Virus record (IMG/VR): IMGVR_UViG_3300048930_000687 | Strand: one strand, 5' to 3' | Source: a virus | Length of the DNA: 38,989 nt | Shown here: positions 1-38,989 of the stretch, in pieces | Numbering within the stretch: the first letter of the stretch is position 1 | Layout: each line of letters begins with the position of its first letter | Program-made: the position numbers and the translations under genes | Notes under the pieces: generated by a model | Told to the model about the DNA's origin: nothing | What the model saw: only the letters and a program-made list of their open reading frames with translations | The model's database searches: none

Positions 1-127
1 CGGTCACGCGTGAAAGCGTCACCGCTTGCCTCCGTACCAGGTCGATTGCGTGTTGCCGAGCGCGGCACGTCGCAGTTGCTCGTCGAGGTATTCGAGCGCG
101 CCGAGGTCGCAGCGTGCTGGCGCCATG
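1..127. repeat. Terminal direct repeat, identical to 38863-38989
   Basis: Read directly: cggtcacgcgtgaaagcgtcacc...gctggcgccatg occurs at both window ends. Confidence 0.9.
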
Positions 128-2763
128 GCCAGGTAGATGCGGATGCCACGAACGGACGTGCTGGCGAGCGACTTGTGGGTGGGGCTAGTGTCGACCCATA
201 CGAGCTTGGCGGCGTATTGCCTGAGTAGGCGTGCGTTGCCGATCGCGGCATCTCTGCCGTATCTGCGTCGGACGAGTTCGACGGCGGCGCTCACGCGAAT
301 GATGAGCGTGCCGTCCAGCGCTCCGGGCGTCATGACTAGGCTGGGATCTTTGCTTTCTCCTGCGGCGCTGCCGAGTTGTTCGAGGAAGGTTTCGAGGTTG
401 GTCTTTGACTCGTCGCCGCCTTCGAGGGTTTGTTGGACGCCGACTTCGAGGGCGAGCTGGATGTTGGTGTCGTTGAAGAGGTCGTTGTCTACGTCGTTTT
501 GGGCGTGTAGGAGGCCGTAGGCGATGTAGGTGAGGGCGAATTCGAGGCGGGGGCCGCCGCGGGCGTTGGCGGCGGTTTTGGCGAGTTTGTGGGCGCGTTG
601 GAAGCGTGACTGGTGGTCAGCCTCAGACAGGGTTAGGGCGCATTGGGCTAGGTGGTGGGCGTATGCCCAGTTGGGGGCGGATTGGGTTGCGAGGTAGGTG
701 GGGGTGTTGCCGCGGTCTTCCTGGAGGATGAAGTACAAGGGGCCGCGGGATAGTGCGGCGGCGTCTTCGGTGAAGCCTTCACCGGCGACGATCAAGGGCG
801 AGTTGAGGATGTAGGCGTGGTCTTTGGCGGCGATGCCGCTGCCGCGCCATTTGATGCCGAGGTCGTGGTGCTTGCGGAGTTGGCTGTCGTCGATGCTGCC
901 GGGTCGGTATTCGTCGAGGGCGGCGAGGCGGTTGTTGAGGTTGGCGAAGCTGCTGTCGTACTGGTAGGGGGTGAGGTTGGGTGCCTTGCGCAATCGTGCG
1001 CTTGGGTGGCCGGTGGTGAGGGCCAGGACCAGCTCGATGCTGCTGCTCTTGCCCGACTCTCGTTCGCCTGTGATGTACAGGAACGGCAACCGGTCGCCAA
1101 GGAGTGGTGTGAGGCGGGGGCTGAATGCGCTGGCGAGGCCGTAACCGATGAGGGCCATGGCGGCGCTGGGCGTGATGAGGGACAGCAACTGCCGGATGGT
1201 GTGCCGGGCTGCGTCTACCTGGTCTGGTGTGCCGGGTTTGAGGTTGCGGTAGGCGGGGCCGGGGTCGAGCGGCGTGCCGGCGTAGAACAGGTGCTCATGC
1301 AGCGTGTCCTGGTAGAGCGCGGTCCATTGGTCGTTGATCTTGTGCAGCCCATAGGTGGTGACTCCCCTAGCGATGGGGAGTTTGGGGCTGTTGGTGAGGA
1401 TGAACTGGCGGATGTAGGCGATGTCGCTGTTGCTGTTGGTGAAGACGACGGCGTTGTGGCTGCTGATCTCGGCGAGAAGGTCGCGGCGGCTGCTCCAGGC
1501 TTTGGCGGGTAGGTCGATGGTGTGCCGGGTGTGGGTGTTGATGGCGAGGGTGCCGCGGTGCCCGATGGTGCCGTCCGGCCATTCGAGGGTGGTGGTGGGT
1601 GTGAAGACCCAGTTGGTGAGTTGGGTGTAGGTGGGGCCGTTCTGGTTTTCGCGGACGCGGGCGTAGCCGCCTTGTTGGATGGTGATGGGGGCGTCGGCGG
1701 TGGTCTTGGCGAGGTCGTCCACGGTCTCTCCCCCGCCCTGGTTGGTGTGGATGGTGGCTGTTGGAGTGGTGCGGATGGGTGCGTTCTTGCCTGCGGTCTC
1801 CCGGTACGCCCAGTCGAGTGCGGCTAGTGCTTCGTCGTGTGGGATTGGTCCGGCGGTGCGGGCTGGCAGGATGTCGGCGAGGTGCGTGGCGAGCCGGTTG
1901 GCCTCGCTTCTGGGGAGGTTGTTTTCGCGGCAGCTCATGGCGAGCCATAGGAGGCTGCGGTGGCGGCCTACGTCGGTCTTGGTGACCTTGCGGGCGACGC
2001 GCTCGGCGCGTTCCAGGAGCCGCTCGGCGATGCCGGCGGGTGGCACCCAGTCGTCCGGCGTGGTGTTGGCTGGGGCTTCGCTGTAGGTCTCGAGGTCGGG
2101 ATCGAGCTGGAAGAACTCGATGACCTCTTGCACCGTGTAGGCGGCTTGTTGGTCGAGGTGCAGGATGCGGCTTTGGATGGGGTCGGCTTTGGTGTGCCAG
2201 AAGCCGGGGATGCGCATGACCCGACTTAGGTTGCGGCTTTCGGGTTCGCTGCCGAACTTCGCGATGATCTGCGCCTGCAACCGCTTCCACAGGTGCACGT
2301 CGCCGCAGTCGACGACTACCCAGTAGGCGTGGAGCTTGTGCGGGAGGCTGGATTGGACGATGAGGCTGGGTTTGAGTTCGGCGTCCTCGATGAGCGTGAG
2401 GTTCGCGCCGGGCTTCGCTTCGTGGTCGTATTCGATGAAGAAGGCGCTGGTGTTGATGATGTCTGCGTCGGTGATGGCGCCTTTGCCGTCGATGACGATC
2501 TTCTGGTGGCCGGTGGTGGGGTTGGGGGTGTTGACGACCATGTAGGCGCCGTACCCATCCGAATTGAGGCGGGTCATGCGTTTGAGGGTGCGGTGGCCGG
2601 GGTCGGTGATCTCGGCGAGGTCACCCCAGAGGCTGATCGTGGGACTGCCGCGCTTGATGAACCGGAACTCCGTGGGTGCCGTGCCGTGGAGGGCCTGGTA
2701 GTACCGACTGGCTTGGCGCCAGTCGGTCTCTAGGAGTGGTTGGGGGTCGCGTCGGCGGGTCAC
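19..2763 (-). CDS. Replication protein: primase-polymerase-like N-terminal region fused to P-loop (D5/SF3-like) helicase domain
   Basis: 914-aa ORF with GTG start; motifs FFIEYDHE and MRIPGFWHTK resemble archaeo-eukaryotic-type primases; Walker A-like GERESGKSS; 3' end abuts the iteron region. Confidence 0.65.
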   Translation of the reverse strand: MTRRRDPQPLLETDWRQASRYYQALHGTAPTEFRFIKRGSPTISLWGDLAEITDPGHRTLKRMTRLNSDGYGAYMVVNTPNPTTGHQKIVIDGKGAITDADIINTSAFFIEYDHEAKPGANLTLIEDAELKPSLIVQSSLPHKLHAYWVVVDCGDVHLWKRLQAQIIAKFGSEPESRNLSRVMRIPGFWHTKADPIQSRILHLDQQAAYTVQEVIEFFQLDPDLETYSEAPANTTPDDWVPPAGIAERLLERAERVARKVTKTDVGRHRSLLWLAMSCRENNLPRSEANRLATHLADILPARTAGPIPHDEALAALDWAYRETAGKNAPIRTTPTATIHTNQGGGETVDDLAKTTADAPITIQQGGYARVRENQNGPTYTQLTNWVFTPTTTLEWPDGTIGHRGTLAINTHTRHTIDLPAKAWSSRRDLLAEISSHNAVVFTNSNSDIAYIRQFILTNSPKLPIARGVTTYGLHKINDQWTALYQDTLHEHLFYAGTPLDPGPAYRNLKPGTPDQVDAARHTIRQLLSLITPSAAMALIGYGLASAFSPRLTPLLGDRLPFLYITGERESGKSSSIELVLALTTGHPSARLRKAPNLTPYQYDSSFANLNNRLAALDEYRPGSIDDSQLRKHHDLGIKWRGSGIAAKDHAYILNSPLIVAGEGFTEDAAALSRGPLYFILQEDRGNTPTYLATQSAPNWAYAHHLAQCALTLSEADHQSRFQRAHKLAKTAANARGGPRLEFALTYIAYGLLHAQNDVDNDLFNDTNIQLALEVGVQQTLEGGDESKTNLETFLEQLGSAAGESKDPSLVMTPGALDGTLIIRVSAAVELVRRRYGRDAAIGNARLLRQYAAKLVWVDTSPTHKSLASTSVRGIRIYLAMAPARCDLGALEYLDEQLRRAALGNTQSTWYGGKR

Positions 2764-2773
2764 GGCGGTTCGG

Positions 2774-4564
2774 TTACCTGGCCTCGTGTACGCGGGTGAT
2801 GAGGGTGCTGTCGGTCTGCTCGTCGGGTTTCAGGGTGTTCACCCAGAAGTCGCGCCGGGAGAGGGTGGTGATGAGGTGAATGTGGTTCTTGGCGCGCGTG
2901 ACGCTCGTGTAGTAGAAACGTCGGGGGCTGAACTTGACGGGTTCGGGTTGGTAGAGGATGACCGTGTCCCAACCTGATCCTTGGGCTTTGTGGACGGTGA
3001 CGCAGTACCCGAGCTGCATGAGGTCCTTGGCGTCCTCGATGGCGATGGTGCGCGTGCCTTCGCCGGGTCCGAAGTCGATGTCGACATCCACACCGTTGCT
3101 GCCGGTGACTTGGCCGGTTTGGCCGTTGAAAACGCCGTATGTGTAGTCGTTGTCGGTGACGAGGACTTTGTCGCCGATGCACACGCCGGCGTCCGGGTAG
3201 TTCCCACGCGAGTCTTTGGCGCTCCAGACGCGGTACGTGAACAGTGGGATGCCGGTCGGGTTGAGGAGGTCTTGGATGTGCTGGTTGAGGGCTTCGCGGG
3301 TGTCGTTCTTCCAGGTGACGACTTGCCATTCGTGATGTGCCAAGCGGGTGCTTGAGTCCCGGATTAGGGCGTTGAAGTCGTTCTCTGCGGCGTCCGGGTC
3401 GATGCCGAACCGCAAGTACACGCCGCGTTCCGGCTCGCTGGGCACGTACGCGTCTGGGGCTTGGGTGCGGATAGCCTCCGCGAACTGGTGGATGCTCACC
3501 TGACCGGCCTGGCGGTAATTGATCTCTAGGTGCACGTGCGGAAGACCGAGCGCCAAGTAGTCCGAGAAGGGCGTGCCGTACCCGATGGGTGGCAGTTGAT
3601 TCGGATCGCCGACAAGTATCAGCGTGCTGGTGGGCAACATGGCCTTGACGACCTTGGCCAGCAGCCAGTTGGGGATCATGCTGGCCTCGTCGAGCACGAC
3701 GATGTCTTCCATGAGGGGGATGGGCACGGTGTTGGGGCCTTGCAGGCCGAGGGCGCGGTGGATGGTGCTGCAGGCGACCCAATCGACGCCGTCCTCACCC
3801 ATGGCTTCTTGGCTGCGCATGGCGGCCTTGCCGGCGAACGCCATGACGCGCATGGTCTTGCGGAGCTTGCGCGCAGCGTGAGCGATGGCGGCAGTGGATT
3901 TCGTCTTGCCCGTGCCGGCCCCGCCCGTGAGGGCCATCAGGCGCGTGCCGCTCAGGGCGGTGCTGACGGCCTGTAACTGGTCCTCGTTGAGCGGTCCGAG
4001 GTCGAGGCTGGAAACGTCGGGTAGGGTGAGTTGTTGGGCGCTGGTGAGCACGTCCTCGAACAGTTCGGCGAGGTCTTGTTCGGCGCGGAGTTCGGACGGT
4101 AGCCAGGCGCGGTCGTGGTCGATCTCGACGCCGGCGAGGCGCAGTTTGGGGTTGCGGAGGTCGGCGCGTTCACGCTGCTTATCGAGTTCCCAGAGCCTGA
4201 GGGGACCGTACTGCTCGAGGATGCTCTGGTTCCCCGCCGCGTGCCGGCGAGGGTGGTCGAGGCCGACGTCGAAGTCGCCAAGGGCGACGGCGTCGGCTTT
4301 CTTCCAGTTGATGCCACGCACGTGCATGAGTTCGTAGGGGTCGAAGCTGATGAGCGCGAGGATCTCGGATTCGCTCAGGTGCTCGTCGCTTGACTTGAAC
4401 AGGTCGGGTTGCGTGAGGAGCTTCGTGAACAGCGTGTCGTGGACGCCGTGTTTGCGCCAGTCGTCGCGCATCTCGTTGTAGTGGCGTTCGATGCGGCTTG
4501 CGAGGCGGCGGCCGATGCCGTGGAGGTCGTAAACGTGCCTGTGGCGGGTGATCGTGGTAGTCAT
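2774..4564 (-). CDS. RecD-like SF1 DNA helicase
   Basis: 596 aa; Walker A GGAGTGKT, Walker B VVLDEASM, C-terminal TVHKAQGSGWD motif typical of RecD/TraA-like helicases; AAGGAG-type RBS before the ATG. Confidence 0.8.
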   Translation of the reverse strand: MTTTITRHRHVYDLHGIGRRLASRIERHYNEMRDDWRKHGVHDTLFTKLLTQPDLFKSSDEHLSESEILALISFDPYELMHVRGINWKKADAVALGDFDVGLDHPRRHAAGNQSILEQYGPLRLWELDKQRERADLRNPKLRLAGVEIDHDRAWLPSELRAEQDLAELFEDVLTSAQQLTLPDVSSLDLGPLNEDQLQAVSTALSGTRLMALTGGAGTGKTKSTAAIAHAARKLRKTMRVMAFAGKAAMRSQEAMGEDGVDWVACSTIHRALGLQGPNTVPIPLMEDIVVLDEASMIPNWLLAKVVKAMLPTSTLILVGDPNQLPPIGYGTPFSDYLALGLPHVHLEINYRQAGQVSIHQFAEAIRTQAPDAYVPSEPERGVYLRFGIDPDAAENDFNALIRDSSTRLAHHEWQVVTWKNDTREALNQHIQDLLNPTGIPLFTYRVWSAKDSRGNYPDAGVCIGDKVLVTDNDYTYGVFNGQTGQVTGSNGVDVDIDFGPGEGTRTIAIEDAKDLMQLGYCVTVHKAQGSGWDTVILYQPEPVKFSPRRFYYTSVTRAKNHIHLITTLSRRDFWVNTLKPDEQTDSTLITRVHEAR

Positions 4565-7422: not shown

Positions 7423-7791
7423 GTGATGCTAACTGTTGCTAACCTCGACTGGATGGCGAAAGCGTCGACATCCAGCACCCTTCGTCCCAAGTGGGGGCGC
7501 AAGCTCGCGGCTCGACGCACCGAGCTCGGTCTCAGCCTTGGGGCGATTGAGGAAATGACCAACGGCGTTGTCTATACCCAGTTGCTGTATCGCCTCGAGA
7601 ACGGTCGCATGAACCCCAGGAACCTCAAGGCTCATCAGTTGGGGGCTCTGCTGACCGCGCTAGAGTGGACGCACGAGGACTGGGATGCGTTGCTTGGGCA
7701 GCCTTCTGGAACTACCGCTGGCGTCGGTACTCCAGTCGAGACCGCGAAGGGTCACGGCAGCTCACACCTGGTTATCCCAGGGGGGTGGTGA
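7423..7791 (+). CDS. XRE-family HTH domain protein (N-terminal part of a cI/LexA-like repressor)
   Basis: HTH-XRE-like region GRKLAARRTELGLSLGAIEEMTNG...; ORF ends TGA at 7789-7791 immediately after a G6 run; track start is GTG, ATG at 7426. Confidence 0.7.
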   Translation: MMLTVANLDWMAKASTSSTLRPKWGRKLAARRTELGLSLGAIEEMTNGVVYTQLLYRLENGRMNPRNLKAHQLGALLTALEWTHEDWDALLGQPSGTTAGVGTPVETAKGHGSSHLVIPGGW

Positions 7792-8165
7792 TGGTGCCGG
7801 TCTACGGCTCAGCAAACGGCGGCAAGCCATCCGAATACGGCATCCCAGTCGACCCCGAACTAGTCAGAGGCGACAACACCCGCGCCTACCAAGTAGACGG
7901 CGACAGCATGAACACCGGCACCGAAGAAGGCATCCGAGACGGAGACTGGGTACTCGTAGACACGAGCCTCACCAAAGGCATCCCCGGCCGAGTCTTCCTC
8001 CTCGAGATCATCGGCGACGGCATGACCGTCAAACGCCTCCGCGTATTCGACGGCGAATGGCGCTTCGCCAGCGACAACCCGGAGGTCGGCGAGAGCTGGC
8101 GTGGCGACCAAGTCCGCGTCATCGGCCAGGTGTACGGCAAAGTCAACTTCAAGGCGATCCATTGA
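7791..8165 (+). CDS. S24 (LexA/cI-like) peptidase domain protein (C-terminal part of a split repressor)
   Basis: Motifs VPVYGSANGG, DGDSM (Ser nucleophile context) and TVKRL (Lys); ATG overlaps upstream stop as TGATG; frame is open for 42 codons upstream of the ATG. Confidence 0.8.
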   Translation: MVPVYGSANGGKPSEYGIPVDPELVRGDNTRAYQVDGDSMNTGTEEGIRDGDWVLVDTSLTKGIPGRVFLLEIIGDGMTVKRLRVFDGEWRFASDNPEVGESWRGDQVRVIGQVYGKVNFKAIH

Positions 8166-8222
8166 GGCAAGCAGCAACACACTGAAAAGGGTGCACGTGA
8201 ACCAAGGATGGAGGAATCCAGA

Positions 8223-9350
8223 ATGAGTAGCCGCCCTTCTGTCCAAAAAGGGGACCCTGCCAAACTAATACCGCTGAGCGACCTCGCATTTGATCCCGAG
8301 AACCCGCGGCTGCCCAAAGAACTTGATGGATCGGACGAGGCGGCGGTGCTGGACTGGATGATAAAATACGGAGCCATCAATGAGCTGATGGCCTCGATTG
8401 GTATGCAAGGTTTTTTCACTGCGGAGGCCCTGCTCGCGGTTCCGAATCCCAGCGGCGGCTACTGGGTTGTGGAAGGCAACCGACGACTGGCGGCGGCAAA
8501 GCTACTTGTAAACCCAAACCTGGCGCGATCGCGGGCGAACTCAATAAGGGACACCGTAGCTGCGGCGGATCATGCGCCAACCAGGCTTCCGGTCATTGTC
8601 TACCCGGACCGCTCGAAGATCCTCGCTTATCTGGGGTTCCGCCACATTACAGGGGTGAAGCAGTGGGATTCTCTCGCAAAGGCTCGCTACCTTGAGCAGA
8701 TGCGAGTGCAGATGACCAACGACGGTGTTCAAGAAGCTGATATGAATCGCAACTTGGCGAAACTAATCGGAAGTCGTTCCGACTACGTCGAGAGGCTTCT
8801 ATTCGGCTTGAAGGTATACGACCGGATTGTCGAGGAAGTCCTAACTGATTCAGAAGTCAAGGTCGACGAGTCCGAGATCAACTTCTCCGTCCTCACCACC
8901 GCGCTGAACTATACGAGTATCGCCGACTTCGTGGGTTTGAATCGGGAGCAGGGTGTAGAGGGTGTCTCTCGAGAACGCCTTCGCGAACTCACTCAATGGA
9001 CGTTCGAGAAGAGCAAGGACCGACCATCTAGGGTCGGTGAGTCCCGCAACCTTGCCCTCCTCGCACAGGTCGTAGCCGAGGCAGACGCTCTCCAGGTTTT
9101 CCGAGACGGGGCGCCATTGAAGGAGGCGGCCGTTTACGCGAAAGGACCCGGCAAGTTGATGCGCGAGTCCTTGAGCGCAGCACGCAACAACCTTCGCGCG
9201 GCATTTGGTGCCGTCCTGACTGTGCCTGACCTAAACGAATCTGACCGGGCCCGAGCTGAGGAAGTAAGTACTGCAAGCAATCGACTCTTGAAGTTGATTG
9301 AGAGCGTCCTATTGGACGCGGCCAACAAGCAGGATGGGGGCCATGAGTAA
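8223..9350 (+). CDS. ParB/Srx-like N-terminal domain protein with unknown C-terminal region
   Basis: Motif VVEGNRRLAAAKLL resembles the ParB GxRRxxAA box; GGAGGA before the ATG at 8223; visibly lower G+C than surrounding genes; 8-nt overlap with next gene. Confidence 0.65.
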   Translation: MSSRPSVQKGDPAKLIPLSDLAFDPENPRLPKELDGSDEAAVLDWMIKYGAINELMASIGMQGFFTAEALLAVPNPSGGYWVVEGNRRLAAAKLLVNPNLARSRANSIRDTVAAADHAPTRLPVIVYPDRSKILAYLGFRHITGVKQWDSLAKARYLEQMRVQMTNDGVQEADMNRNLAKLIGSRSDYVERLLFGLKVYDRIVEEVLTDSEVKVDESEINFSVLTTALNYTSIADFVGLNREQGVEGVSRERLRELTQWTFEKSKDRPSRVGESRNLALLAQVVAEADALQVFRDGAPLKEAAVYAKGPGKLMRESLSAARNNLRAAFGAVLTVPDLNESDRARAEEVSTASNRLLKLIESVLLDAANKQDGGHE

Positions 9351-10371
9351 CGCCAGGCAGCTGCTTACGGCTGAACGGCGACCGACTATCCGGAAGATGG
9401 ACACGCATATGCACGCAGACTTTGCTGAAGTGCTATGCCTGGTGAACCCCGACCATGACATCTCAAGCTCGGACATACTCGACCGCTTCGCAGAGCGACG
9501 TGACCTGGGCGAGGAGTTCGAGGAGGCCGACATTGATCCGGAGTTAGCATTTGGTGTTGCCGGCAACTACGAACTGCCTACTGAGCAGCCCGTGGATGGG
9601 GAGTGCGAAGAGATCGATCAAATTAGTGAGCAACTCGTGCTCCGCCAGAGGCTCCTGGGAAGCGCCTATCCTTTTCGGCTCACGGTAACCGGATCGAGCT
9701 TCCGCCTCGCTCGCAAGCAGAAGCTCCACAAAGTGCACCTACTCTACCTGTTCCTACTGATTGCTTCGGATCTCACTCGCATCAACAACCCCACCTACTC
9801 GCGACGGTTTACTAGCGCATTTGAGCGGCTTGCAGGCGAGATGATGCGACGGCTGCTACCGTCCGGAGCCCAGGTTCACCTCTTTGGCACCGCCGCACAG
9901 AAGGGTGAATTGTTCCACGGTGGTCGCCTCGGTGATCGAATGGAACTCTTGGCTAAGCACTTACGCGGTGTCTCTAAGCTGGATAGGAACCATTCTGGGT
10001 CCTCTGGCGACGCCGGCATTGACATCGTCGGCTGGGTGCCAATGGGCGATGCGGGCGACGGCCTGCTAGTTTTGATGGGCGGTGCAACGTGCTCATACAA
10101 GAACTGGGAGAACAAGGTCTATAGTACGTCTTACGGCAGATTGAAGGAAAAGGTCCAGATTCGCGTCCCTAGCGTGAATGTGACATTCATTCCGTTTTTC
10201 ATGCGTACGTCCTCCGGCGATTGGCATAGGGCCGACGAACTCGGTGAAGCTCTCCTGGTGGACAGGCTCCGTCTCATCAAGGGTTTGGCTAAGGCCGGCG
10301 ACGTAATTGAATCCATCGGCGTAAAGCGGGAGCTCCGCGACATTCTTCAAATAAGAGAGACCACCGTCTAG
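9343..10371 (+). CDS. Hypothetical protein, candidate nuclease partner of the methyltransferase
   Basis: 342 aa; acidic N-terminal region; segment GDAGIDIVGW...GGATCSYK loosely resembles Mrr/PD-(D/E)xK-type catalytic cores; sits immediately upstream of a C5-MTase gene. Confidence 0.5.
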   Translation: MSNARQLLTAERRPTIRKMDTHMHADFAEVLCLVNPDHDISSSDILDRFAERRDLGEEFEEADIDPELAFGVAGNYELPTEQPVDGECEEIDQISEQLVLRQRLLGSAYPFRLTVTGSSFRLARKQKLHKVHLLYLFLLIASDLTRINNPTYSRRFTSAFERLAGEMMRRLLPSGAQVHLFGTAAQKGELFHGGRLGDRMELLAKHLRGVSKLDRNHSGSSGDAGIDIVGWVPMGDAGDGLLVLMGGATCSYKNWENKVYSTSYGRLKEKVQIRVPSVNVTFIPFFMRTSSGDWHRADELGEALLVDRLRLIKGLAKAGDVIESIGVKRELRDILQIRETTV

Positions 10372-10386
10372 AATAGATTGGCGTCC

Positions 10387-11361
10387 ATGACTCAGGTCCT
10401 CAAATCCGCCGTTTCACTCTTCTCGGGGTGCGGCGGGTTCGACTGGGGCGTGAAGAGCGCCGGTGTCGACATCATCTGGGCGAACGACATCGACCCTCAC
10501 GCGGCCGCTGCCTACAAAGCCCTGTTCCCCGAAACCGAGTTCCATCTCGGCGACGTAAGAGACATCGCGACCTTCCCCGAAGCTGACGTTCTCATAGGTT
10601 GCTATCCATGTACGGGCTTCAGTCTCGGCTCACGGCGACGCAACCGCGATGGCGCCGACAGGGACCTCAAAGCGAACGGCGGCAACTATCTGTACGAGGA
10701 ATTCGTCAGGGCCCTATCAGTCGTGCAGCCGGCGGTCTTCTTCATCGAGAACGTCGGTGGCATGACCACTGCGTCTGACGGTTGGTTTTTCGAGAAGCAG
10801 TTGACCGAGTTCAGGCGCCAAGGATACGTCGTCAACCACAAGGTCCTAGACGCGTCAAGTTTCGGAGCAGCACAGACCCGCAAGCGACTCTTCATCGTCG
10901 GCGTCAAGCAAGAACTCGGCACAAGCTTCACTTTCCCCGAACCCACACATGGTCAGGCTGACGACCTGAAGGCACTAGCAAGCCTCCGGTCGGCGCTAAC
11001 AAATGTGAAGACTGATGTTGACACCGAGGTCTTCAACTTCAAGTTTCACGGTCATTACCTGACGAGAAACCGGAAACGCCCATGGGAAAGCCCCAGTTAC
11101 ACCATTGTCGCTAACGCACACCACGTTCCCCTCCACCCGTCCGGTGAACCAATGCGCCGCGTTGGAGTGGATCATTGGGAGCTCCAGGGCGACGTGAACC
11201 GTCGGCTCTCATGGCGCGAATGTGCCGCAATACAAGGCCTTCCCCCACAAGTAGCGCCGTCGGGAACACTGCTCGACAAGTACAGGGTCGTAGGCAACGC
11301 AGTACCTCCCGTTTTCGGGAAGACCTTGATGGAAGAGGCCACAGCACAGTTCGGCAGTTGA
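10387..11361 (+). CDS. DNA (cytosine-5)-methyltransferase
   Basis: C5-MTase motifs: FSGCGG (I), GCYPCTGFS (IV, catalytic Cys), FFIENV (VI), QTRKRLFIVG (VIII), GNAVPP (X); start could be TTG at 10378. Confidence 0.9.
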   Translation: MTQVLKSAVSLFSGCGGFDWGVKSAGVDIIWANDIDPHAAAAYKALFPETEFHLGDVRDIATFPEADVLIGCYPCTGFSLGSRRRNRDGADRDLKANGGNYLYEEFVRALSVVQPAVFFIENVGGMTTASDGWFFEKQLTEFRRQGYVVNHKVLDASSFGAAQTRKRLFIVGVKQELGTSFTFPEPTHGQADDLKALASLRSALTNVKTDVDTEVFNFKFHGHYLTRNRKRPWESPSYTIVANAHHVPLHPSGEPMRRVGVDHWELQGDVNRRLSWRECAAIQGLPPQVAPSGTLLDKYRVVGNAVPPVFGKTLMEEATAQFGS

Positions 11362-11444: not shown

Positions 11445-11546
11445 ATGACCAGCAGAGTATGTATAGACGGTGAGGGCACCAATCGTTTACTTGACGGTCG
11501 GTTGACTCGCGTCACCGTCGGTTTGGTCCCGGACGATGTCCCGTAA
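11445..11546 (+). CDS. Small upstream ORF (33 aa) overlapping the integrase start
   Basis: ATG preceded by GGGGAGGAATA; my translation MTSRVCIDGEGTNRLLDGRLTRVTVGLVPDDVP; stop lies 8 nt inside int. Confidence 0.3.
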   Translation: MTSRVCIDGEGTNRLLDGRLTRVTVGLVPDDVP

Positions 11547-12831
11547 GCGCAATCGTCGCGCGCCGGGCGAGGGCGCCATCTACGAACGCCCCGACCGCGG
11601 CACCTGGGTGGCGGCCATCGTGATCGCCTTCGACGAGCACGGACGCCCAATCAGACGCACGAAGACCACGCGCACGAAGACCGAAGCCATGGCCTGGCTC
11701 ACCGCCCAGCAGGCAGCGCTCAACAGCGGCTTGAAGCTCGGGGAGAACGCGACCCTGCAGGAGGTCGTCGACGAGTGGATGGCCGCCGGCCAAGCCCTGC
11801 GCGGCTGGGGTACCAGCACCGTGACGTCATACCGAGCCACCATCGCGAAGATCCTCCCACGCCTCGGACGCATGCGGGCCCGCGACCTCGACCCAGCCCT
11901 CATCGAGCGAACCCTCCTCGACCTCACCCGCAACGGCGCCTCACCCGCCATGGTGGCTCGCGTCCGCAGCCACCTGGCCATGGCCTTGAGGTACGCACTA
12001 CGCAAGCGCCTAATCGAGCGCGACCCGATGCTTGGCGTGGACGCACCGACCACACCGGCTCCACAGATCCAACGATGGAGCGAGGCGGAGGCCGGCAGGA
12101 TCGTCCGCGAATGCCTCGACCGGGACGACCAGACCGCCAGGTACGTGCTGGTGGCACTCGGCACCGGTCTCCGAACGGAGGAACTGCTGGGTCTCGCCTG
12201 GTCGAGCGTTGACCTCGAGGAGCGCATCCTGCTTGTCGAGCGCGTGGCGATCGAGGTCGCCGGCAGGAAGGAGCTCCGGGCGGGCGGCAAGACCGAAGCC
12301 GCCAACCGCCCGGTGCCGATCGACGAGCTGACAGCCGCAGCCCTGGCGCGGCAGGCCGAGCATGTGGAGCACTTGCGCGGCGCCCGGGCGCACCTGGATG
12401 CCAAGCGGGTCGCCGAGGGCCTCCAGTCGCTCGGCTGGGCTGATCTCGACCTGGTGTTCCCGTCGTCGGTCGGAACGGTCGTGAGCCGCAAGACGCTCCG
12501 GGCCGGGTTCGGCGATCTGCAGGAGCGCACGGGCGTGACGCGCATCAAGCTCTACGCCACGCGATCCACGCACGGGAGTCTGTTGGCCGATGCGGGAGTC
12601 AACCTGCACGCGCTGGCCGAGCGCATGGGGCACGCCGACCGGCGTTACCTGGCCAAGAAGTACCTGCGGGGAAGCACGTCGGCGCACCGCGCAGTCGCCG
12701 AGCAGATAGGGCAGATCCTTGGTAGCACGCTGGTAGCAGGAGCCTCTCCGGAGAGCGTCTCGGAAGGTCACGAACCGGCAGGAGAGGGAGCGCGGAACAC
12801 GCGGGAAGTGCGACGGGAGGCCAGTAATTGA
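11536..12831 (+). CDS. int: Tyrosine-type site-specific integrase
   Basis: 431 aa; N-terminal arm-binding-like region, core with GLRTEELLGLAW, C-terminal HGSLL / MGHADRRYLAKKY consistent with the R-H-R-Y catalytic arrangement; followed by a tRNA 3' fragment. Confidence 0.9.
   Translation: MSRKRNRRAPGEGAIYERPDRGTWVAAIVIAFDEHGRPIRRTKTTRTKTEAMAWLTAQQAALNSGLKLGENATLQEVVDEWMAAGQALRGWGTSTVTSYRATIAKILPRLGRMRARDLDPALIERTLLDLTRNGASPAMVARVRSHLAMALRYALRKRLIERDPMLGVDAPTTPAPQIQRWSEAEAGRIVRECLDRDDQTARYVLVALGTGLRTEELLGLAWSSVDLEERILLVERVAIEVAGRKELRAGGKTEAANRPVPIDELTAAALARQAEHVEHLRGARAHLDAKRVAEGLQSLGWADLDLVFPSSVGTVVSRKTLRAGFGDLQERTGVTRIKLYATRSTHGSLLADAGVNLHALAERMGHADRRYLAKKYLRGSTSAHRAVAEQIGQILGSTLVAGASPESVSEGHEPAGEGARNTREVRREASN
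12721..12744. repeat. Direct repeat copy A (GGTAGCACGCTGGTAGCAGGA), candidate integrase arm-type site
   Basis: 19 of 21 positions identical to copy at 12969-12992; contains GGTAGCA twice 11 bp apart. Confidence 0.4.
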
Positions 12832-32773: not shown

Positions 32774-34135
32774 TCACCGGTAGATGCGGCGGGCCGTACT
32801 GAGGTCGGTGGTGCGCTTACCGCCTACTAGCGCCTGGAATAGTGCGGCTAGGGCATCGATGATGTCGTCGTGCGCGTCACCGAGGCCCGTGAACTGGGTT
32901 AGTTCCGATTCGATCTTGGGCGTGAAGTTCGCGTGCTTCGGTAGTAGGATTTCGCCGCGGTTCCAGGCTGTGGCGGCGGGGTAAGCGCGGCTGAGCTTGT
33001 CGGTGGTGGCGGTGATGGCCGTGACCTGAATACCCTCGCGCTTGAGTAGCTCTTCCAACCCGCGTTCGGTGCCGCTGCGGTACCACGTGACGCGAGTTAC
33101 GCCCGCGGCACGCATGAGGGGGATGTAGTGCATTGGTTCGAGGCGGTCGTGGATGAGGTTGGTGACGTAGATTCTGCCGTCAATCAGGCGCCCAGTGATG
33201 GTCACCGTCGCATCACTCGTGGTTTTGGCGGTGTACGCGGCGTCGAAGCCGTGCGCCTCGCGATACGGCTTGTCAGGGAGAGCCTCGTAGTAGGTGGTGT
33301 CCTTGAAGACGCTGGCGCCCGCCTTGACCGGCTCGCACATGTACAGCGCGCTCCAGTCCTCGGGGAGGAGCAGCTCGCGTTGCGCTTCCAGCCACTCTAG
33401 GGGCCGCTCAGCGGGCCACAGGGCGGTGCCGTCGGCGGTGATGGCGGGGAGCTTGATGTACTCCCACTTGCCTGGTTGGGTCTTGAGGAACTGCCCGGTG
33501 GGGTCGTCGAGGTGCCACCTGGTGGCGACGAGGATGACCGAGGCGCCGGGGTGCATGCGCGTGAACGCGGTCGAGGAAAGCCAGCTCATGGCCTTGGTGC
33601 GAATCAGGAGGCTGTTGGCTTCCTCGCGGTCCTTGAGGAGGTCGTCAACTAGGAGCAGGCCGTCAACTGGGCGACCGGTGAGTGGGCCGCCTCTGCTCGT
33701 CCATGCGACTGCGCCGCCGTCCGGCGTCTCCCAACGATCAAGGGTCGAGCGCGTGAGGTTGAGGGCGTGCAGGTCAGCCGCTCGGGACGCGATGCTCGAC
33801 TGGTCGCGCGTGAACGCCTGCGCGTACGTCGCGAACGCATGCCGCAAGCCGGGCCGTTGCAGCATGAGCCACACGAGGCCGTGCAGCACCGTCTCCGATT
33901 TGCCGTGCTGCGGTGGGGTGCTCACCAGCGCCTTGACTTGCTCGCCTGCCGCTATGCGCTCGAACAAGTCAAGCAACGGCGCCAAGTGAGTCGGGGCCAC
34001 TCTGCCGGGGGATTGGCTGATGAAGTCGGCGAGTGACGCAGGTGGCTCGGAGCTAGTTGAGGGCCGAGCGGATTGCCTGAGCTTGTCCGCTCTGCGCTTC
34101 GTGGCCTCGATGCGGTTCAGCATTTGCAGCGCCAC
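32774..34135 (-). CDS. Terminase large subunit
   Basis: 453 aa; Walker A-like PQHGKSE, Walker B-like LLLVDDLLKD, ATRWHLDDPTGQ nuclease region; true start uncertain (overlaps upstream ORF by about 70-80 nt). Confidence 0.85.
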   Translation of the reverse strand: MALQMLNRIEATKRRADKLRQSARPSTSSEPPASLADFISQSPGRVAPTHLAPLLDLFERIAAGEQVKALVSTPPQHGKSETVLHGLVWLMLQRPGLRHAFATYAQAFTRDQSSIASRAADLHALNLTRSTLDRWETPDGGAVAWTSRGGPLTGRPVDGLLLVDDLLKDREEANSLLIRTKAMSWLSSTAFTRMHPGASVILVATRWHLDDPTGQFLKTQPGKWEYIKLPAITADGTALWPAERPLEWLEAQRELLLPEDWSALYMCEPVKAGASVFKDTTYYEALPDKPYREAHGFDAAYTAKTTSDATVTITGRLIDGRIYVTNLIHDRLEPMHYIPLMRAAGVTRVTWYRSGTERGLEELLKREGIQVTAITATTDKLSRAYPAATAWNRGEILLPKHANFTPKIESELTQFTGLGDAHDDIIDALAALFQALVGGKRTTDLSTARRIYR

Positions 34136-36167: not shown

Positions 36168-36391
36168 GGCGCTGCCTCCGTGGCATCCTGCGAGCCTGTG
36201 GCGAGTTGGTCTCGAATCTCCCCGAACGCTCCTCGCCAGGTCGAGTACGTGTTGCTGACTTGCCGGCGTTCCCGTAACACCCCGAACGCGCGCTGGTAGA
36301 CGCGCCATTCATCACTCCCGTCCTTGGCGAGGTCCCGGTCGAGCCACATGCCGTGCGCGGCCAGGACGGTCTGCGCCTCCCACAGCGTCAC
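36164..36391 (-). CDS. Hypothetical protein (75 aa)
   Basis: GTG start overlapping the RusA stop (GTGA), inside track ORF 36164-36622. Confidence 0.4.
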   Translation of the reverse strand: MTLWEAQTVLAAHGMWLDRDLAKDGSDEWRVYQRAFGVLRERRQVSNTYSTWRGAFGEIRDQLATGSQDATEAAP

Positions 36392-36735
36392 GAGAGCGCC
36401 TCCACCGTCACGAGCACGCGCCCGGGCGCCTCGGGGTAGGCGCGGATGATGCTCAGCTCGTCGATCTGGCTGTCGTCGTCGAAGATGCACGCGAACGTGA
36501 GGGCGTCCAGGATGCCCTTGTGCAGGTTGTCCAGGTCGCGTCTCCTTCGGTCGGGTGGGTAGGCGATGACGCTCACGCGCACCCTGGCAGGGCCGAGGCG
36601 CGGGGCGGACTGCTCCAGGCATGCGGCGATGGCCGCACCGCGGTACTCGCGAGCTTTAGCGCTCAGGACCGTGCGGCTGCCCACGCGCCGCCAGTACGTG
36701 TTCACACTCGGCGGGAACGGCAGGGTCAGGGTCAC
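36388..36735 (-). CDS. rusA: RusA-family Holliday junction resolvase
   Basis: Motifs PPSVNTYW and DLDNLHKGILDAL characteristic of RusA; GTG start with GGGGAGG RBS. Confidence 0.85.
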   Translation of the reverse strand: MTLTLPFPPSVNTYWRRVGSRTVLSAKAREYRGAAIAACLEQSAPRLGPARVRVSVIAYPPDRRRRDLDNLHKGILDALTFACIFDDDSQIDELSIIRAYPEAPGRVLVTVEALS

Positions 36736-37843: not shown

Positions 37844-38052
37844 GCGGGCACCACGGTGCGGCACGCGCACTGCTCGGTTGGCTTGCCGTGCTTGGCGCAA
37901 GCCGCCGCCCAGTCGCCTTTGCGCGGGTAGATGTCGTTCTCGCACCTGTACGTGATCGCGAACGGCACGCGCGGCACTATGCGCTCCTCTGTCGGCTCCT
38001 CGACTCGGCGGTAGAACTCGTCGGCTGTGAGGCCGGTCACTATGCGGTTCAT
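37840..38052 (-). CDS. Hypothetical protein (70 aa) with Cys pairs
   Basis: Internal ATG with AAAGGAG RBS, inside track ORF 37840-38244. Confidence 0.45.
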   Translation of the reverse strand: MNRIVTGLTADEFYRRVEEPTEERIVPRVPFAITYRCENDIYPRKGDWAAACAKHGKPTEQCACRTVVPA

Positions 38053-38600
38053 GCGGTTGCTCCTTTCAAGGCGTCGGCGAGCCGCGATGCGAGGCTCTGG
38101 CCGGTGAGGACTTGGTGGGTGACGGTGGGGATGTCGGCGGTGAGTTGGGCTTCCCAGAGAAGCGTGTTGAGCCTGGTCCATTTGGCGAGGATTGCGGCGT
38201 GCTCGTCGGCAGGACTGGTCCAGGCGGCGTCGTAGGTGGGCCAAAGGTCGTCGAGTTGCTGTTGGTACCAGTCGATGGCCTCAAGGAGTTTTTCGGGCGG
38301 CATGGTGGTGAAGGCGGGTGTTTGGGCGCGTCCGTGTTGGCGGATGGCGATTTCGAGTTGGGTGGCGAGTTTGCAGATTTCGCGTTGGGCGTGATCGGTG
38401 TTGGTGGTGGGGGTGTTGGTTCGTTCGGCCCAGGCGTTGATCTCAGCTTCGGTGCAGAGCCAGGCTCGGGCGGTGCGGGTGAGGTCGTCGCCGGTGAGTC
38501 CAGCGGCTTTGAGCATGTCGAGGATGTCGAGGCTGATCTCGAGCTCGGTGGATGTGTGGGGGCTTTTTAGGGGGGTTGCGGTGGTCGGTAGGTTGGTCAT
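38049..38600 (-). CDS. Hypothetical protein, first gene of the early-right operon
   Basis: 183 aa; ATG preceded by CGGAGGT; directly downstream of the iteron region. Confidence 0.5.
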   Translation of the reverse strand: MTNLPTTATPLKSPHTSTELEISLDILDMLKAAGLTGDDLTRTARAWLCTEAEINAWAERTNTPTTNTDHAQREICKLATQLEIAIRQHGRAQTPAFTTMPPEKLLEAIDWYQQQLDDLWPTYDAAWTSPADEHAAILAKWTRLNTLLWEAQLTADIPTVTHQVLTGQSLASRLADALKGATA

Positions 38601-38614
38601 TTCTGGACCTCCGG

Positions 38615-38862
38615 GTTGCGGTCACGCGTGAAAGCGTGACCGGTCACGGGTTCGGACACGCGTTTTTTGCGTGCTGGACAGTTGGTCACGCGAGTCACGC
38701 ATTTTGCTGAGTTGTGTGTGCCTATATGCGTAAGGACGTGGACGCGGTCAGAATGCCCCCGCGTACCCTTGTCTTCTCTTATGTAAGACCCTCTTATGTA
38801 TAAGTCGTGACTAGCGTGACCTTGCGTCAGGCACGCAAACGATGGCGTGACCGAAACGTGAC
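38615..38862. promoter_or_regulatory. Candidate replication origin and early promoter region (iterons, palindromes, A/T-rich island)
   Basis: At least ten GTCACG / CGTGAC half-sites; palindrome GTCACGC-gtgaaa-GCGTGAC; A/T-rich segment with direct repeat CTCTTATGTA twice; lies between the primase 3' end and the early-right operon. Confidence 0.5.
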
Positions 38863-38989
38863 CGGTCACGCGTGAAAGCGTCACCGCTTGCCTCCGTACC
38901 AGGTCGATTGCGTGTTGCCGAGCGCGGCACGTCGCAGTTGCTCGTCGAGGTATTCGAGCGCGCCGAGGTCGCAGCGTGCTGGCGCCATG
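38863..38989. repeat. Terminal direct repeat, identical to 1-127
   Basis: Read directly from sequence. Confidence 0.9.

Follow-up and report, generated by a model that had tools for sequence, protein, structure and literature searches.

In the origins of the staphylococcal pathogenicity islands (SaPIs), rep is followed directly by 6-12 iterons of five or six nucleotides (PMC9371898; Ubeda et al. 2007 cited there), with an AT-rich region between iterons that lie at least two per side and in opposite directions (PMC9371898). The C-terminal winged helix of Rep, a self-loading helicase that is probably loaded as a pair of hexamers, recognises these iterons (PMC9371898, PMC7581432), and in SaPI5 the primase is fused to Rep (i.e. 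PriRep5; PMC9371898). For Cch2 of the staphylococcal cassette chromosome mec (SCCmec), an origin has been proposed in the intergenic region after the helicase gene, with short iterons bound by the C-terminal domain of the helicase (PMC7581432). A region of similar organisation was examined in the IMG/VR virus record IMGVR_UViG_3300048930_000687, a stretch of 38,989 nucleotides (nt) referred to here as the window. The region (38601-38885) directly follows the gene for a primase-helicase of 914 amino acids (aa), and is likely to be the replication origin of this phage, of the SaPI/SCCmec type, at which rings of the primase-helicase would form on opposed iterons, an A/T-rich box would open and the archaeo-eukaryotic primase (AEP) domain of the same protein would prime synthesis. 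The support for this reading is computational.

The repeats in this region are concentrated far above the genomic background. Ten exact copies of the hexamer GTCACG or its complement CGTGAC (starts at 38621, 38635, 38643, 38685, 38694, 38806, 38815, 38846, 38857 and 38865) were located within 38621-38870, against a background expectation of ~0.5 derived from the remainder of the genome (Poisson tail ~3e-10). The window holds 80 such hexamers in total; the runner-up among all 300-nt windows contains four, and the cluster at 38601-38885 is unique. An earlier note, made from the letters of this DNA, had claimed at least ten such half-sites within about 250 bp, and the count stands. Its bounds of 38615-38862 enclose nine of the ten, the tenth (38865-38870) lying 3 nt past the end, and the extent is corrected here to 38601-~38885. 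Allowing up to one mismatch, the heptamer GTCACGC occurs at 16 sites in 38621-38884 versus 2.15 expected, and the two halves have orientation biases of 5:1 and 1:4. The palindrome GTCACGC-gtgaaa-GCGTGAC of the earlier note was recovered as part of a 24-nt palindrome (CGGTCACGC-GTGAAA-GCGTGACCG) at 38619-38642, of which a second copy with one mismatch, not listed there, lies at 38863-38886. The A/T-rich island with a duplicated sequence was likewise present: 38764-38823 has a G+C content of 42% as compared to 64% for the genome, making it the lowest-G+C 60-nt window genome-wide except for a foreign low-GC cassette at 8-11 kb, and the decamer CTCTTATGTA occurs twice (38776-38785 and 38791-38800). 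Dyad symmetry extends across the whole region around a centre at ~38750, with arms of 34 and 31 nt (38666-38699/38806-38839 and 38618-38648/38857-38887, respectively) that are 79-84% complementary.

Positions 1-127 are identical to 38863-38989, indicating that the window represents a circular phage genome, 38,862 bp in length, that was assembled with an overlap. This overlap repeats the last 34 primase-helicase codons and the stop at 38883-38987 and thereby produces a spurious short 'gene end' at the right edge of lists of open reading frames (ORFs). The true end of the primase-helicase is therefore the stop codon at 38883-38885 (i.e. 19-21), beside the repeats, in agreement with the position at the 3' end of this gene proposed in the earlier note. 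The gap directly after the gene comprises 282 bases. The parts of the region, read away from the primase-helicase gene, are as follows (strands are given where a part has one).

19-2763, minus strand: primase-helicase gene, 914 aa; its TGA stop at 38883-38885 overlaps the outermost site.
38601-38885, minus strand: whole proposed origin, from the primase-helicase stop codon (38883-38885) to the base preceding the ATG of the next gene.
38845-38886: gene-proximal outer iteron cluster, with the palindrome CGTGACCGGTCACG and the 24-nt palindrome 38863-38886; heptamers at 38845-38851 (minus), 38856-38862 (minus, one mismatch), 38865-38871 (plus), 38870-38876 (minus, one mismatch) and 38878-38884 (minus, one mismatch), the last overlapping the stop codon.
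38822-38838: constant box of the gene-proximal half, TTGCGT-N5-ACGCAA (a CGT-N5-AC(G/A) box), flanked by the outer cluster and the inner pair.
38805-38820, minus strand: gene-proximal inner iteron pair, GTCACGA and GTCACGC in tandem at 9-nt pitch.
38764-38804: A/T-rich box, candidate unwinding element, holding the duplicated CTCTTATGTA; its core GGGTCTTACATAAGAG (minus strand) is kept in relatives.
38736-38763: G+C-rich central spacer, variable in sequence and length among relatives (alignment columns ~140-185 unconserved).
38718-38733: conserved box TTACGCATATAGGCAC (minus strand), without a match in a sigma-70 consensus scan.
38685-38700, plus strand: distal inner iteron pair, two GTCACGC in tandem at 9-nt pitch, mirroring 38805-38820.
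38655-38682: distal constant box, CTGTCCAGCACGCAAAA on the minus strand, mirroring the proximal box and also containing a small hairpin-capable CACGC-GT6-GCGTG.
38619-38649: distal outer iteron cluster, with the 24-nt palindrome 38619-38642 and CGTGACCGGTCACG; heptamers at 38621-38627 (plus), 38626-38632 (minus, one mismatch), 38634-38640 (minus) and 38643-38649 (plus, one mismatch).
38049-38612, minus strand: next gene including its ribosome-binding site (RBS), 183 aa, no family match; GGAGG (38608-38612) and ATG (38598-38600) abut the last iteron.

An Rfam search of the region returned no family even at E <= 1. Each outer palindrome carries ACCGGT, which contains CCGG, at its centre (38639-38644 and 38861-38866), and the phage encodes a C5 methylase. 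A DdrO-like site of the radiation/desiccation response motif (RDRM) type, considered on account of the TTATGT repeats, was rejected as the direct arrangement with a 15-nt pitch was unsuitable.

Comparison with the SaPI origins revealed a shared organisation. Short iterons begin directly after the initiator-helicase ORF, with the first site of the window overlapping the stop codon at 38883-38885, and the same holds in 15 related loci. An A/T-rich stretch (38764-38823) lies between the iteron sets, i.e. between the inner pairs at 38685-38700 and 38805-38820, and at least two iterons on each side are opposed, the inner pairs reading ++ (38685/38694) and -- (38805/38814). Both systems also include a primase-helicase fusion, as in PriRep5 of SaPI5, and, apparently, iteron sequences that are specific to the element. 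The window differs in having heptamers as sites, with a true palindrome in each outer cluster, in having 16 sites as compared to the 6-12 reported for SaPIs, and in its extra conserved boxes (CGT-N5-ACG and TATAGGCAC) and off-centre A/T-rich box. The helicase part of its protein has no sequence homology to that of the SaPIs (no Pfam or PDB sequence match), and so the initiator falls outside the sequence family of SaPI Rep/Cch. Furthermore, the carrier is a complete temperate tailed phage, probably with a host in the Deinococcota, whereas SaPIs are satellites in the Bacillota.

Other systems matched in fewer respects. SCCmec Cch/Cch2 (PDB 5dgk) shares the short iterons just downstream of the helicase gene; however, the Cch2 origin has three 5-nt direct repeats rather than two opposed sets, the SCCmec primase is a separate A-family polymerase/MP pair or unknown in place of a fused AEP domain, and the sequence identity to the window protein is 11%. 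The oriV of RSF1010 (RepB' primase, ssiA/ssiB; PDB 3h20, 3h25) bears on the window through the RepB'-type AEP catalytic domain found in the window protein and, speculatively, through the two mirrored inverted-repeat boxes as priming signals. Replication of RSF1010 involves three separate proteins (RepC initiator, RepA helicase and RepB' primase) and 20-bp direct iterons, as compared to one polypeptide here, and two conserved hairpin priming signals were not found among the relatives of the window: only CGT...AC is invariant, and the stem is broken in several relatives. In the core origins of simian virus 40 (SV40) large T antigen and papillomavirus E1, inverted short sites beside an A/T-rich tract direct two opposed helicase hexamers. 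An analogy with these origins has also been drawn in PMC7581432. The SV40 and papillomavirus proteins differ from the present one as unrelated superfamily 3 helicases with an N-terminal origin-binding domain that act in eukaryotic hosts. The region does not conform to a classical plasmid or lambda-type iteron origin, which has one-way direct repeats of 17-22 bp and usually DnaA boxes: its 7-nt sites are opposed, and no DnaA box was present among its 9-mers at up to one mismatch, a single one occurring at two mismatches. We know of no defined origin for BcMCM of a Bacillus cereus prophage. This protein resembles the one encoded here in combining an N-terminal primase-like domain and an MCM-like AAA+ helicase in a single polypeptide (PMC2715239, PMC3273815).

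Conservation of the layout was examined in relatives. A DNA search of INPHARED with the last 990 nt produced no match, a protein search of the same database with the primase-helicase produced weak partial matches only (coverage <=36%), and IMG/VR scans with the 22-nt palindrome and with the primase-helicase protein returned nothing. Relatives were obtained from metagenome protein clusters (21 homologues of 29-82% identity) and from three Deinococcota genomes (i.e. Deinococcus arenicola, D. phoenicis and a Trueperaceae genome). As homologues occur in Deinococcota genomes, the host of the phage is probably a Deinococcus-like member of this phylum. DNA was recovered for 15 distinct related loci, one of which (L009) is covered only through the proximal half to the A/T-rich box, its contig stopping short of the distal half. 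From the stop codon onwards, one order of elements was observed in 15 of the 15 loci (in L009 as far as its contig extends), over 262-360 nt: an outer cluster with a palindrome, a CGT-N5-AC(G/A) box, a tandem inner pair at 9-10-nt pitch, the A/T-rich box, a variable spacer, a TATAG-containing box, and then the mirror image up to the RBS of the next gene, if there is one. The iterons themselves fall into the following classes.

GTCACGC / GCGTGAC (C-type): window, L001, L004 and L018.
GTAACGC / GCGTTAC (A-type): L017, L011-13, L010 and L008.
GTTACG / CGTAAC (T-type): L020, L019, L005 and L006, with a GGTTACA form in two Deinococcus prophages.
GTACCGC: L009 and L016.
CCGAAAGGATAG / CTATCCTTTCGG, an unrelated 12-mer: L007, whose protein shares the AEP part only and has a D5-type helicase.

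Within a locus, one variant was present at nearly all copies (e.g. 10/11, 11/12, 11/13 and 9/11), and the bases flanking the variable site position were invariant in a multiple alignment. Concerted change at a dozen dispersed positions is the pattern that would be expected of binding sites tracking one changed trans-acting reader. Among the outer sites of L018, L019, L020 and L008, one or two 'foreign' iterons were observed (e.g. one GTAACGC in L018), which may be remnants of past specificity switches. In many relatives the variable spacer is bracketed by an inverted pair, (T/A)GAGGGT ... ACCCTC(A/T), which reads TGAGGGTG / CACCCTCA in L015; the distal copy in the window has decayed to CACACACA (degenerate, ~38706-38800). 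The loci of D. arenicola (L014) and D. phoenicis (L015) are prophage-like and encode a helicase and winged-helix part that is 48-50% identical over aa 360-899, with a different N-terminal region; their origins are of the GGTTACA type with the same layout, and these loci could be used for experiments.

The protein adjoining the repeats was analysed by profile searches and structure prediction. Searches of Pfam (E <= 0.01) and PHROGs detected an N-terminal RepB'-type AEP primase domain (RepB_primase) only, and a PDB profile search gave the AEP domain of the cyanophage S-2L PrimPol as its sole match (E 1e-12). An AlphaFold2 model built on 22 homologues, with a predicted local distance difference test (pLDDT) of 73.6 and a predicted template modelling score (pTM) of 0.44, is divided into six parts: the AEP primase (aa 1-220), a helical part, a beta part, an AAA+ part, a helical lid and a C-terminal winged-helix-like domain (~789-901), modelled as a helix/beta-hairpin unit (aa 789-901). 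The Walker A residues G571-K572 of the AAA+ part are invariant across the homologue alignment. By its predicted fold, the protein appears to be a Rep/Cch-family AAA+ helicase with a C-terminal winged-helix domain, indicating an AEP primase fused to a Cch/Rep-like initiator helicase. This initiator helicase family has no Pfam model, and among 1.84 billion representative proteins only 22 clusters were assigned to it at E <= 1e-30; 133 representatives of the helicase family were counted. Distant relatives of the helicase and winged-helix module (P0045-P0063, 24-30% identity) are fused to quite different primases (i.e. AEP-TOTE with PriCT_2, DnaG zinc-ribbon/Toprim, and the helix-bundle domain of the NrS-1 polymerase), and no Pfam helicase family was detected in any of them. 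The helicase and winged helix form an unannotated initiator-helicase module that swaps primase partners.

The primase-helicase is the sole constant neighbour of the repeats across the loci. Downstream, an HTH_17 gene has been inserted in L010 and L019, replacing or displacing the usual gene, and L014 has no co-directional downstream gene. The downstream proteins remain similar despite a change of site class, with identities of 84% between L011 (A-type) and L019 (T-type) and 67% between L001 (C-type) and L020 (T-type). Consequently, the downstream 183-aa protein was rejected as the binder: its homologues track phage phylogeny rather than site class, and its gene is displaced or absent in some loci. 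A small terminase was also rejected, as its family is not constant across the loci. Primase-helicases of closely related phages were mosaic where the site types differ. The identities between pairs of primase-helicases, given for aa 1-780 and aa 790-900, were as follows.

P0009/P0012, sites A/T: 90% and 53%.
Window/P0003, sites C/T: 82% and 65%.
P0013/P0014, sites C/A: 78% and 51%.
Window/P0001, sites C/C: 81% and 87%.

The DNA sequences of L011 and L019 have an identity of ~85% along the gene and of ~60% over the last 400 nt and the repeats, after which it returns to 80%; thus the diverged block consists of the end encoding the winged helix together with the sites. Over all pairs, and with overall identity allowed for, sharing a site class was associated with a gain of 0.024 in identity of the winged-helix domain (permutation p 0.055) and of 0.038 in the recognition helix and wing (p 0.026), as compared to -0.02 to +0.016 for control segments. 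These comparisons point to the C-terminal winged helix as the putative binder of the sites.

The proposed mechanism draws these elements together. A single 914-aa polypeptide would supply the AEP primase-polymerase, a Cch/SaPI-Rep-like AAA+ initiator helicase and the C-terminal winged-helix-like domain, the last of which would recognise the heptamer GTCACGC. On each side of a centre of ~100 nt there are ~7-8 such sites, in two sets of mostly opposite orientation. Because these sets point in opposite directions, two helicase rings are proposed to assemble face to face. The duplex would then open at the A/T-rich box (38764-38804), each ring would be loaded, and the first primers would be made by the fused primase domain. 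The point-by-point match to the SaPI origins, combined with the Rep/Cch fold predicted for the adjoining protein, makes an origin the best-supported explanation of the region. The origin-like architecture suggested by the earlier note accordingly agrees with the computational results on the uniqueness of the cluster, its position at the stop codon, the conserved layout and the SaPI match.

Several observations weigh against this assignment. At the level of sequence (Pfam at E <= 0.01 and a PDB profile search), the helicase part has no link to Cch/Rep, and the connection depends on the predicted fold in a model of moderate confidence at the pLDDT and pTM given above. The association between site class and winged helix is modest, with the p values of 0.055 for the domain and 0.026 for the recognition helix and wing. 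A column analysis had paired residue 870 in the predicted wing with site base 3 (S/T where this is C, V/I where it is A and P/A where it is T); in a prospective test on P0003 (Leu 870), GTA was predicted and GTT was found, and this specificity rule was dropped, with the association retained at the level of the domain only. The A/T-rich box is off-centre, the true centre being G+C-rich, and both the CGT-N5-ACG boxes and the TATAGGCAC box fall outside what the model explains. Finally, GC skew lent no support to an origin. The skew check proposed in the earlier note was performed, and cumulative skew exhibited a monotonic rise that tracks the gene strand and speaks neither for nor against an origin. 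Skew was discarded as an origin test since its extremes shift with the point at which the circle is opened, and the detrended extremes (31792 and 6174) follow the gene strand.

Three conserved elements lie beyond the SaPI model, namely the CGT-N5-AC(G/A) boxes, the GGGTCTTACATAAGAG core and the TATAGGCAC(CCTCTCAAC) box; their reader may be a host factor or the conserved primase domain. The CGT-N5-AC(G/A) boxes are mirrored, have TTTG/CAAA flanks and occur once per half between the outer and inner iterons; they are constant across iteron classes and present even in L007, where the helicase part belongs to another family. A two-layer composite is conceivable, though on balance doubtful, in which a swappable specificity cassette is joined to a class-invariant layer (CGT-N5-ACG, GGGTCTTACATAAGAG and TATAGGCAC boxes). 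The cassette could consist of the end encoding the winged helix together with the iterons, giving at least five initiator-origin pairs that would be orthogonal to one another, with a single site base distinguishing three of them. By analogy with ssiA/ssiB, the invariant layer could be read by the RepB'-type primase domain on priming-start signals of both strands, or else by a host factor. If true, a single element of 280 nt would unite the logic by which SaPIs load their initiator with that by which RSF1010 signals to its primase.

Amongst the alternatives to an origin, control of transcription survives best, although it is unlikely. The partly palindromic sites would here be operators of a phage regulator for the operon that starts from 38600, possibly with origin and autoregulation combined. 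The intergenic location, with one edge at the RBS of the next gene, fits such control, as do the CGTGACCGGTCACG palindromes, which resemble the sites of dimeric regulators, and a conserved TATAGG-containing box located ~110 nt upstream of the ATG. However, a consensus scan of 38300-38989 detected zero sigma-70-type promoters or terminators on either strand, non-canonical promoters being outside its reach. The flanking genes are co-directional, and 16 sites in two opposed sets across 260 nt are far above the number in typical operators. In addition, changes of site class accompany changes at the 3' end of the primase-helicase gene rather than in the downstream gene, which is itself inconstant owing to the HTH_17 insertions in L010 and L019 and the lack of a co-directional gene in L014. 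A CI-like repressor and the expected early switch are found elsewhere, at ~7.4-8.2 kb; this repressor locus (7665-8165) is probably where the immunity switch and the true early promoters lie. The repeats are embedded in one long leftward gene array, ~7.5 kb downstream of this expected switch, and the gene that follows them (38600 to 38049) shares the strand of the primase gene. With the repeats inside this array and no promoter consensus at hand, the 'early promoters' and the 'first early-right gene' that the earlier note had placed here are unsupported.

A plasmid-style partition site, or a copy-control array that acts by initiator titration or handcuffing with initiation elsewhere, appears very unlikely. 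Clusters of initiator-binding repeats outside the true origin are known, as in the crr region of phage P4 and the inc iterons of plasmids, and count in favour of copy control. Against this, the genome has no second cluster of sites that could serve as the 'real' origin, which makes an array of either kind unlikely, and the opposed orientation around an A/T-rich stretch is that of SaPI initiation. Partition is further opposed by the lack of ParA/ParB among the ORFs scanned and by the presence of an integrase and a CI-like repressor.

Marginally less probable still is a structural element, with the ~270-nt imperfect palindrome acting as a cruciform or long hairpin, or representing a miniature inverted-repeat mobile element. 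The complementarity of the 31- and 34-nt arms fits this explanation, as does the folding of the region as single-stranded DNA, which is far better than that of shuffled sequence (z = -7.2). In the relatives, however, fold z values span -2 to -9, long-range pairs number between 6 and 54, and the number of iterons is unequal between the arms, indicating that selection acts on the arrangement of the motifs rather than on pairing and that the fold is a by-product of mirrored sites. A mobile insertion is contradicted by the absence of a second genomic copy and by a position fixed at the stop codon in loci whose proteins are only 29-82% identical. The least probable alternative is a packaging site (pac or cos), in which the small terminase subunit would bind the repeats. 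A Terminase_2 small-subunit gene does lie 0.6-1.8 kb downstream in L018, L010 and L019, and the assembly break of the window adjoins the region. However, the break is an ordinary 127-bp circular-assembly overlap, and the contigs of relatives continue across the region. No Terminase_2 homologue was detectable in the window, where the large terminase gene lies at a distance of 4.5 kb, so that terminase family is not constant while the layout is, and the region is always joined to the primase-helicase stop codon.

Beyond the proposed origin, the gene content of the window is that of a temperate tailed phage and includes the following genes.

2774-4564, minus strand: RecD-like helicase.
7665-8165, plus strand: CI-like S24 repressor whose C-terminal part is of the S24 peptidase type, oriented divergently to the leftward gene array.
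10378-11361, plus strand: C5 methylase.
11536-12831, plus strand: tyrosine integrase.
32774-34135, minus strand: large terminase.
36388-36735, minus strand: RusA.

A low-GC island (8208-11361, ~57% as compared to 64% for the genome) adjoins the integrase gene and encodes a PD-Lambda-5_A-like protein (E 7e-25), an unknown 357-aa ORF and the C5 cytosine methylase. This island probably represents a cassette for defence or restriction-modification that is carried by the prophage.

The architecture of the proposed origin is known; what is new is its lineage (i.e. complete temperate phages, probably of Deinococcota), a helicase family that lacks a Pfam model, and a series of specificities that differ by one base. 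An origin type so far characterised mainly in Staphylococcus satellites and SCCmec would thereby extend to a distant phylum, and for annotation the region marks the most likely replication start in an otherwise uncharacterised phage group. These loci provide a natural test set of origins differing only at site base 3 (C, A or T), paired with initiators whose differences are concentrated in the last ~120 residues, which suits asking how a winged helix reads one base and how an initiator and its origin switch specificity together. Such specificity switching is the basis of replicon incompatibility and of conflicts between phages and their satellites.

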